DNA of 13,458 nucleotides from IMG/VR virus record IMGVR_UViG_2667527608_000004; one strand, 5' to 3'. A model generated the notes under the pieces. It made no database searches, was not told where the DNA came from, and saw only the letters and a program-made list of their open reading frames with translations. This stretch comes from a virus. Lineage: Duplodnaviria; Heunggongvirae; Uroviricota; Caudoviricetes. This document shows, piece by piece, positions 10,313-11,747 of this stretch. Both the position numbers and the translations under genes were made by a program. How positions within the stretch are numbered: position 1 is the stretch's first letter; the number at the start of each line of letters is the position of its first letter.

Positions 10313-10409
10313 CTTCATCGTCACATAGCTGGTAACCAATGGCCTGAAGAGACGTTTGGGTGACAAGAAGCATAGGTATTAACAATAACTTTCATGGTGA
10401 TACGAATCA

Positions 10410-10952
10410 GTGGCTAAAAAAGGCGACTTTAAGCCTACCCAGAAAGAGGTTGACCAAGCTATTACTTGCTTGAAAAAAGTAACTTTTAGCGGAGTTTCGT
10501 GGACCGGAAGTGAGGGACGAACCCCAATCTGGTTTAAATTGGATCTCAAAGCTTTTGATGAAATTGGCAACCCAATCACAGGCATAAGATTTATGCTTCA
10601 CTGGCGTTCTCCTATCGTTGAAGGGGTGGATATAGTGAAGCTTTCATTTGTGATGTTTCTTCATGACAGGCGCATTTACGCGCTTGACCCGTACCCTGCG
10701 CATAACAAGTCACACCGTAATAAATCTATAGTGCACCATCCAGATTTTGTTGAGGTGGCTCGAGGTCCTCACTATCACATGTACTTCGAATCAGCTGGGG
10801 AAGAAATTGCACTCAAGCTTGAAACGAACATCAAGCCAGATGATTTTTTTGGCTACTGGAATTATTTTTGCGAGGCGCTTAATATCATATATGAAGGCAG
10901 CCCACCTTTACCGAATCAAGATAAATCAGGTCAGCTATCATGGGAAATGTAA
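10410..10952 (+). CDS. Hypothetical protein A (180 aa), first gene of a two-gene cassette downstream of cI in the rexAB-equivalent position
   Basis: GTG start at 10410 with GGTGA 9 nt upstream; His-rich segment (HNKSHRNKSIVHHPDF...GPHYHMYFE); no family recognised by eye; no terminator between cI and this gene. Confidence 0.7.
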   Translation: MAKKGDFKPTQKEVDQAITCLKKVTFSGVSWTGSEGRTPIWFKLDLKAFDEIGNPITGIRFMLHWRSPIVEGVDIVKLSFVMFLHDRRIYALDPYPAHNKSHRNKSIVHHPDFVEVARGPHYHMYFESAGEEIALKLETNIKPDDFFGYWNYFCEALNIIYEGSPPLPNQDKSGQLSWEM

Positions 10953-11716
10953 CGTGTTCAACAGTCATATCTAAGCTCGGGTTTGAATGCCACCCAATGA
11001 GCGACACGTTGCTGCGCGTTATTAGTCCCTTCACATACTACGATGATTGTGAGCAGATAAGCGTATTCGTTCAAGAGATGAGTGGTCAGTATAGGGTTAC
11101 AGACTACTGCGATACATTGATGAATATTGAATCACGCGGCATCCACCTGACTAAAAAGAAAATTGATCTGATCAGGTCATCACTCGCTTCGCAAGGAATT
11201 TCATTAAATGACTCTGGAGAGATATCTGCGTGGGCAGATGAGTCGTCCGTTGGACAGGTAACTGCAAATGTTATTCGTGGTGGGATTCTTGCATCCGCCC
11301 AAACTGCTGATTGGTACGCTGAGGTCAAAGACGATAAGTTTGAAAAATGTGTAATCAGTTACTTAAAATCAGCAGGGCTTGGGAAGCGACTAGCCTTAAA
11401 GGAAAAAGTGAAAGGTATTAGTGGGCATAACATTACTGTTCCGTTAACGCTAAGGAATGAGTCTCGACTAATACCACCAAAACGCGGGTTTACGGTAAGC
11501 CTTGCCAGCAGTAAAGGATGGAATACTGCCCACTCAACAGTTGGGAAGATTGTTGACTTAAGTCAGGTCGTTCCTGACATAAACAATAGATTTGTAATAG
11601 TTGACAGCGATGGGTTAACACCTGAGCTACAGCAACTATCACTACTATTTAATGATACCGCACGAGTGTTGCCATTCCATACCAGAGACTCTTGGATTGA
11701 CTCTCTGGTAGCCTAG
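10940..11716 (+). CDS. Hypothetical protein B (258 aa from ATG 10940; alternative ATG at 10997 gives 239 aa), second gene of the cassette
   Basis: Overlaps the 3' end of gene A by 13 nt (coupled); stop at 11714-11716 is followed immediately by a strong intrinsic terminator; no recognisable motifs and no long hydrophobic segment. Confidence 0.7.
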   Translation: MGNVTCSTVISKLGFECHPMSDTLLRVISPFTYYDDCEQISVFVQEMSGQYRVTDYCDTLMNIESRGIHLTKKKIDLIRSSLASQGISLNDSGEISAWADESSVGQVTANVIRGGILASAQTADWYAEVKDDKFEKCVISYLKSAGLGKRLALKEKVKGISGHNITVPLTLRNESRLIPPKRGFTVSLASSKGWNTAHSTVGKIVDLSQVVPDINNRFVIVDSDGLTPELQQLSLLFNDTARVLPFHTRDSWIDSLVA

Positions 11717-11747
11717 AAAAACCCGGCCTCTGCGCCGGGTTTTCTTT
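11716..11747 (+). terminator. Rho-independent terminator closing the cI-cassette operon (timm-equivalent); hairpin is flanked by A-run and T-run, so potentially bidirectional
   Basis: AAAAACCCGGC-CTCTGC-GCCGGGTTTTCTTT: 7-bp GC-rich stem (11721-11727 and 11734-11740), 6-nt loop, T-tract downstream and A-tract upstream. Confidence 0.85.

Follow-up and report, generated by a model that had tools for sequence, protein, structure and literature searches.

A two-gene cassette behind the cI repressor of a lambdoid Escherichia coli prophage is a candidate lysogen-expressed anti-phage module

The DNA considered here is a stretch of 13,458 nucleotides (nt) from IMG/VR record IMGVR_UViG_2667527608_000004, referred to throughout as the window, which represents the early region of a lambdoid E. 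coli prophage. Directly downstream of its cI repressor gene lie two overlapping genes, A and B, encoding proteins of 180 and 258 amino acids (aa), in the slot occupied by rexA and rexB in phage lambda. An earlier note on this DNA had proposed from sequence that this pair is a defence cassette expressed in the lysogen. That hypothesis was reasonable and is now better supported: the two genes are part of the repressor transcription unit, are inherited together in distant prophages and resemble, at a distance, a candidate system flagged by two defence prediction resources. We consider it probable that the cassette is a lysogen-expressed anti-phage module. A more specific version, in which A and B would form a complex, with B holding A and sensing a cue and A acting as the effector of abortive infection, is offered tentatively, as a possibility a little short of even. 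The features of the locus, with window coordinates, are as follows.

9543–9555, 9567–9579 and 9599–9611: right operator region (OR), three operator copies with the motif GWACTNNNAGTWC
9585–9558, minus strand: PR-like promoter for cro, from the promoter scan
9605–10312, plus strand: cI repressor, 235 aa, with helix-turn-helix (HTH) and S24 peptidase domains (Pfam), first gene of the cassette operon
10313–10363, plus strand: relic of a lambda-type cI 3′ end, in frame past the real stop codon and ending in LHRHIAGNQWPEETFG and a stop (translations)
10364–10409, plus strand: 46-nt spacer that moves together with the cassette, being present in O104:H4 behind a different cI
10410–10952, plus strand: gene A, 180 aa, GTG start, divergent DUF6978 (phrog_2017)
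10940–11716, plus strand: gene B, 258 aa, ATG start, DUF1828 plus a DUF1829-type fold
11717–11747, plus strand: intrinsic terminator closing the cI–A–B unit (hairpin 11722–11747, U-tract 11740–11747)
11918–11930 and 11942–11954, plus strand: left operators (OL; motif GWACTNNNAGTWC) with an overlapping PL-like promoter from the promoter scan, overall 11918–11959
12160–12495, plus strand: N antiterminator, the far flank of the slot (PF25694 N_peptide, expectation value (E) 3.6e-26)

This order is that of cI–rexA–rexB–OL/PL–N in lambda, the layout of which was fetched for comparison. The repressor matches the Pfam families Peptidase_S24 (E 3.5e-16) and HTH_3, and its DNA is ~97% identical to the cI of many Stx2a phages. 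The motif GWACTNNNAGTWC occurs six times in the window against 1.0 expected, a number reached by none of 200 shuffled sequences; three copies lie at OR (starting at 9543, 9567 and 9599), two at OL (11918 and 11942), and the sixth, at 638–650, falls outside the immunity region. Equivalent OL operators are present at the Stx2a phage locus. The PL-like promoter detected by the scan has the form TTGATA-17-CATTAT and lies at 11931–11959. At the other end of the immunity region the third OR copy (9599–9611) overlaps the cI start codon, the ATG at 9605, which has a TAGTAT hexamer ending 7 nt ahead of it, an arrangement compatible with a leaderless cI transcript such as that made from lambda PRM.

The terminator scan found no plus-strand terminator between cI and A, and neither the promoter scan nor the sequence itself offered a convincing promoter for A–B in the 97-nt gap that follows cI; a GGTGA sequence stands 8 nt ahead of the GTG start of gene A. 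The single hairpin in this interval, at 10308–10325, spans the cI stop codon and has its T-run on the minus strand only, and could possibly terminate antisense transcription that runs into cI from the side of the cassette. After B, and before the operators at 11918 and 11942, the expected strong terminator is present: a 61-nt segment folds with a free energy of −21.4 kcal/mol (z = −3.26), with the stem CCCGGC/GCCGGG and an A-tract upstream. The consensus terminator scan missed this hairpin at 11722–11747, probably because the flanking A-tract and T-tract lengthen the stem. Operators, terminator and N together thus confirm the assignment to the rexAB slot made by the earlier note, and the case is strengthened by the sharing of the terminator, and by the linkage of the pair to repressors in distant phages, described below. 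It is this position within the cI unit that provides the strongest, though indirect, support for expression in the lysogen, which we infer.

The boundaries of the slot were defined by comparing the window with a Stx2a phage carrying the same cI and the same N, with an E. coli strain carrying the same cI, and with the O104:H4 strain 2009EL-2050, whose cI is of the lambda type. To the right of the cargo the sequences become homologous again precisely at the terminator hairpin, and the terminator is kept in phages with other cargo. On the left, homology stops right after TGGCCTGAAGAGACGTTTGGGTGA at 10340–10363, which encodes WPEETFG-stop, the C-terminus of a lambda-type cI. In lambda (with one mismatch) and in six of the other loci compared (L002–L005, L008 and L025), cI really does end with this 23-nt motif. 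In the window it is found in frame 28–51 nt past the real cI stop codon (TGA at 10310–10312), where 16 codons end in QWPEETFG-stop, and because it continues the frame beyond the real stop we regard it as a relic. The same relic is common to many prophages with this cI and forms the left-hand limit of the variable slot; it is likely to be a recombination linker. The cargo proper is 10364–11721, and the terminator belongs to the backbone. Short conserved backbone flanks of this kind can support homologous exchange.

The cargo is a swappable module, as can be seen from both sides. Behind the same cI, Stx2a phages such as EH0505 carry a DUF3024 protein (PADLOC candidate PDC-S43, E 7e-42) followed by a 285-aa NYN-domain protein (L024, 4269–5615), and E. 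coli RIVM_C037791 carries a single 299-aa hypothetical protein (L026, 1644–2543). In O104:H4 2009EL-2050, the A–B cassette is found at 98.4% identity behind the lambda-type cI. Since all of these cargo variants lie upstream of the shared terminator, every one of them is part of the repressor transcription unit. An identical copy is present in E. coli strain C7 (100% identity over the 10313–11760 cassette query), where the prophage adjoins torS. Among 5426 complete E. coli genomes the cassette occurs in 65 (~1.2%), 2009EL-2050 among them, always as a single copy and always on the chromosome, and in 22 of the 65 it is accompanied by this same cI.

A and B are real genes under purifying selection. 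Both open reading frames (ORFs) lie where the earlier note had placed them, and they overlap by 13 nt (the stop codon of A is at 10950–10952), the overlap in homologues being 4 nt. The GTG start of A is shared with the Pantoea homologue. The length of B had been left at 239–258 aa; the longer form is correct and the 239-aa alternative is not, because residues C6–C17 are conserved in all homologues, which places the start at the ATG at 10940. Comparison with the homologues from Pantoea latae gives a non-synonymous divergence (pN) of 0.14 for A and 0.11 for B, against a synonymous divergence (pS) of 0.78–0.79, which is saturated. The maximal Kyte–Doolittle hydropathy over 19 residues is 1.22 for A and 0.79 for B, with no transmembrane-like segment, consistent with the expectation that both proteins are soluble.

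The pairing of the two genes is conserved in temperate phages of several proteobacterial orders. At every locus inspected, the gene that comes after A is B-like, ~250 aa long and overlaps it, down to an identity of 18–29% in A, and at 20 of 25 distinct loci a co-oriented S24 or HTH prophage repressor gene precedes the pair, either immediately or with one gene in between. The co-occurrence and constant order of the pair behind repressors, which the earlier note had suggested checking, were therefore found. Repressor-linked pairs are present in Escherichia phage ev207, in Enterobacter/Klebsiella-type, Xenorhabdus, Pantoea, Thorsellia, Yersinia, Izhakiella and Providencia prophages, and also in a Pseudomonas phage and a Helicobacter prophage. 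The remaining five comprise short contigs and Burkholderia phage phi644-2 (gp48/gp47), in which no repressor was recognised. When the cassette was compared with the phage collection by megablast, cI alone gave matches, and phage homologues of B surfaced at the protein level only. A search for related loci with a narrow alignment of A returned Enterobacterales only, except for one 518-bp fragment labelled Actinomadura.

Several of these loci have features of their own. The Actinomadura rugatobispora contig (L017) holds a fragment 47% identical to A residues 112–176 and may represent either contamination or a very distant host. In Pseudomonas phage VB_PaD_phPA-G (PP083311; L027, 1989–2504), the deposited annotation misses an A-like ORF of ~170 aa, which has the motifs RVVAID, HxNK and HPHLH and a GQ tail and shares 4 nt with the annotated B-like gene. 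A DUF3024 gene lies between the repressor and the A–B pair in Izhakiella (L014, 3604–3942), and the corresponding position in Providencia and Thorsellia is taken by ORFs of 113–114 aa, of which the one in Thorsellia has no Pfam match.

Protein A is best described as belonging to a divergent branch of DUF6978 and not as a curated member of that family, judging from its profile match: the Pfam model scores 21.7 bits, below the gathering cut-off of 29.6 (E 2.7e-4), and covers the C-terminal half only. The same model matches 30 of 34 relatives of A at E up to 1 (best 2e-6); there were no matches in NCBIfam. The A family is small: clustering at 50% identity yields 42 clusters from 1.84 billion representative sequences, made up almost entirely of stand-alone proteins 140–190 aa long, the others being fragments and two long outliers of repetitive sequence. 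Its invariant residues are R88, H121 and H123, while D93, H102, N104, W31 and Q175 are nearly invariant. The histidine-rich stretch to which the earlier note had drawn attention is thus real and contains the most conserved residues of the family. H121 and H123 alternate on a predicted strand and should, because of this, point to the same side. The arginine and the HxH motif look like a catalytic or phosphate-binding site, and the earlier suggestion that A might bind metal or act as a phosphoesterase fits such a predicted site. The AlphaFold2 (AF2) monomer model of A (predicted local distance difference test (pLDDT) 87, predicted template modelling score (pTM) 0.84) has no fold match in the structure libraries searched. 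A histidine triad (HIT) enzyme was considered and rejected, as the profile match to FHIT is non-significant (E 0.26) and, although it lines up the two histidines with the triad, the fold lends no support. The last 10–15 residues of A are predicted to be disordered yet are strongly conserved (P168…S173-G174-Q175), which is typical of a docking peptide.

Protein B carries a DUF1828 domain at residues 30–112 (40.9 bits against a Pfam cut-off of 22), and all 23 of the aligned homologues match this family. For the C-terminal domain, hmmscan gave no DUF1829 match at E up to 1. The 250-aa homologues of B are annotated as DUF1828 plus DUF1829 in the tables of the DefensePredictor study, DUF1829 having been identified in WP_000968518 by HHblits with a probability of 98.8% (PMC13092281, Table S5). 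The AF2 monomer model of B (pLDDT 82) has two domains: residues ~1–125, with the DUF1828 region, adopt a secretion-chaperone-like fold, and residues ~130–258 an alpha-beta-beta-beta-alpha-beta restriction-endonuclease-like fold of DUF1829 type. The structural matches were allotted to the domains from the order of secondary-structure elements and the sizes of the target proteins, the aligned ranges not being reported. The N-terminal domain resembles type III secretion chaperones and DUF2170-type structures, although there is no secretion-system context here, and the C-terminal domain shares its core with PD-(D/E)xK nucleases (the nuclease domain of Can2/Card1, NgoMIV and PspGI); sequence identity to all of these structures is 4–17%. 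The C-terminal domain nevertheless lacks the conserved catalytic D…(D/E)xK of these nucleases. In the widest alignment V138, S161, H163 and D206 are invariant and T185 is conserved in most branches; S-G-H163 and T185 occupy the expected positions, the third strand has no conserved acidic residue, K181 is conserved in the enterobacterial clade only, and a first-helix Glu is not conserved. A Pfam scan detected no HTH or other DNA-binding motif in either A or B.

The cassette has the layout of lambda rexA–rexB, two co-oriented genes after cI followed by a terminator and preceding OL/PL and N, and expression in the lysogen from the repressor promoters, a further point in common, is presumed for A–B. 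Homology to Rex was rejected, in keeping with what had been noted by eye: the best of four BLASTP comparisons of A and B with RexA and RexB has an E of 0.24, and the aligned segments are short and spurious. Furthermore, RexB is a membrane protein whereas A and B are both soluble, and their folds are unlike anything reported for Rex. Another parallel in position is BstA of prophage BTP1, the product of a defence gene directly downstream of the repressor and highly expressed in lysogeny, which occupies the same site in a cI–N interval described as a mosaic hotspot (PMC8585504). BstA, however, is one protein, not a pair, and comes with a self-immunity element based on DNA.

Two resources link the pair with defence. 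In PADLOC-DB (2023 release) the sole matches are of A to PDC-M24A (E 1.5e-3; 16.9 bits over residues 111–160 only) and of B to PDC-M24B (E 6.3e-7; 27 bits over residues 5–104 only), both weak and partial. The distant relatives match better than the window proteins: the three PDC-M24A profiles match 7, 3 and 2 of 29 members of the A family at E up to 0.01 (best 1.5e-6), and PDC-M24B matches 8 of 10 members of the B family (best 4e-15). PDC-M24 has the same A-then-B gene order and similar sizes (profiles of ~146 and ~256 positions), and is an unpublished candidate without published validation or mechanism. The second resource is DefensePredictor, which lists as ‘predicted novel defense genes’ of one operon a 185-aa homologue of A, WP_001062368 (cluster representative WP_001074607; log-odds 4.9–5.4), and the 250-aa homologues of B, WP_000968517/8 (log-odds 5.6–6.3); its strict threshold is set at a log-odds of 4, and the validation rate among tested units was 45% (PMC13092281). 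This pair represents the ev207-type branch, with identities to the window proteins of ~40% for A and ~51% for B, and the listings are predictions only; WP_001074607 is the O104:H4 allele of gene A. The pair is therefore already known to databases, as catalogued domains of unknown function and as a divergent branch of a candidate flagged by both resources. Where the earlier note spoke of an unrecognised and novel cassette, its description of a two-gene cassette in the lysogen slot stands, and the novelty was overstated in view of DUF1828, the divergent DUF6978, PDC-M24 and DefensePredictor.

The same study also offers a functional precedent. In the validated system DS-6/HipAD, a DUF1829-containing protein (DUF3037–DUF1829) is paired with a toxic HipA-like kinase, for which it is proposed to serve as the antitoxin-like, DNA-binding component (PMC13092281). 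As in the present cassette there are two genes, but the effector is a kinase instead of a DUF6978 protein and the partner has DUF3037 in place of DUF1828. The literature searched contains no functional account of DUF6978, DUF1828 or PDC-M24, and nothing was found there on YbjN in connection with defence. HepS (PMC13043305) proved to be unrelated.

Taken together, these observations suggest the following scheme. In the lysogen, A and B would be transcribed as the last genes of the cI operon, and they would protect their host against other phages by abortive infection of a toxin–antitoxin-like kind. Made in coupled amounts, the two proteins would form a complex in which B is the sensor or regulator, its N-terminal chaperone-like domain holding A, plausibly by the conserved disordered tail. 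This part of the scheme is suggested by the facts that secretion-chaperone folds bind extended peptides and that A has such a tail. The C-terminal domain of B, a restriction-endonuclease fold that has lost the canonical triad, would bind a phage-derived cue, which could be DNA or protein, whereupon A would be released or activated and its Arg/HxH site would damage a nucleotide or nucleic-acid target, stopping the infection. We favour A as effector and B as regulator because the DUF1829 partner in DS-6/HipAD is non-toxic, because B is without D…(D/E)xK and because the conserved site of A is enzyme-like. After induction cI-dependent transcription would fall, which could spare the lytic growth of the prophage itself, as has been proposed for Rex.

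A number of points weigh against the defence reading or this version of it. Position alone is guilt by association and not proof, and DefensePredictor, which uses genomic neighbours as well as protein embeddings, is not independent of position. The PADLOC matches of the window proteins are weak and partial and lead to an unpublished candidate. Homologues of A and B are absent from the tested and validated units in Tables S6–S8 of the DefensePredictor study (PMC13092281), and no phenotype for any family member was found in the literature searched, which did not cover one 2025 screen of E. coli prophage genes. The histidine cluster of A could be structural, and the effector and sensor roles could be reversed.

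This last arrangement, in which B would be a non-canonical nuclease that cuts phage DNA by means of S161, H163 and D206, with A as a specificity, activating or self-protecting subunit, is the best of the other explanations, though we think it unlikely. The third strand has no conserved acidic residue or lysine (T185 is found there in most, not all, branches), the first-helix Glu is not conserved, the DUF1829 protein of DS-6/HipAD is the non-toxic partner, and the invariant Arg/HxH site of A would be left without a role. Still less probable, in our estimate, is an addiction module of the toxin–antitoxin type, or a lysogeny-control module, acting to stabilise the prophage or to adjust the cI/Cro switch. 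The genes are small, overlapping and tightly co-inherited, like those of a toxin–antitoxin pair, their fixed attachment to the repressor operon would suit a regulator of lysogeny, and RexA has been reported to influence the lambda switch (summarised in PMC12894663). Against control of the switch, the same cassette is found behind unrelated cI alleles and operators and neither protein has a recognisable DNA-binding motif, and both prediction resources point to defence; roles in addiction and in abortive infection are, in any case, not mutually exclusive. That the pair is merely selfish and mobile, such as a gene of the homing-endonuclease kind accompanied by a helper, moving from one lambdoid immunity region to another without benefit to the lysogen, is very improbable, as its junctions are short conserved backbone (the cI 3′ end and the terminator) explained by ordinary homologous recombination, the catalytic motif is missing in B, purifying selection on the two genes is strong across genera, and the slot holds unrelated cargo of similar size.

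If the defence function of A–B is confirmed, the cassette would represent a further class of defence cargo at the cI–N slot of lambdoid prophages, after rexAB and bstA, and would give DUF6978, DUF1828 and DUF1829 their first functions. What are now an unpublished PADLOC candidate and a machine-learning prediction would thereby become a validated system. New effector chemistry would be possible, since A has no match in the structure libraries searched. A bolder proposal is that A founds a new enzyme fold, with an arginine and an HxH motif on a beta-strand, and is the killing or arresting effector of an abortive-infection system not characterised before; that B restrains it and couples a chaperone-like, peptide-binding domain to a dead-nuclease sensor; and that the pair forms a widespread repressor-wired defence, from Enterobacterales to Pseudomonas, Burkholderia and Helicobacter, with a mechanism unlike that of Rex, BstA or any named system. 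In this full form we regard the proposal as doubtful. The slot itself, sharply bounded by the cI 3′ end and the shared terminator, offers a handle for mining lysogen-expressed cargo, of which the DUF3024 and NYN pair is an example.

Other features of the window lie apart from the cassette. At 3298–5070 on the plus strand, opposite to the surrounding nin-region genes, there is an ORF of 590 aa with a GC content of ~0.33. Its product has no Pfam or PADLOC match, contains an internal LTLNDFLDN repeat and several hydrophobic stretches, and shares 99.5% identity with hypothetical proteins from two Stx1 phages, AU6Stx1 and SH2026Stx1. The ORF has the look of an independent cargo gene. In the AT-rich sequence upstream of it, at 2930–2982, is a perfect tandem repeat of the hexanucleotide AAATAG in 8.8 copies, which could be phase-variable. 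The window ends, past the N/ral region, in a fragment of an IS3-family transposase gene (12957–13458; minus-strand ORF 13045–13455). The Stx2a phage has a complete IS3-family copy at the matching position (L024, 6566–7456), and further IS3 copies interrupt ninB in strain C7, ninB being intact in the window.

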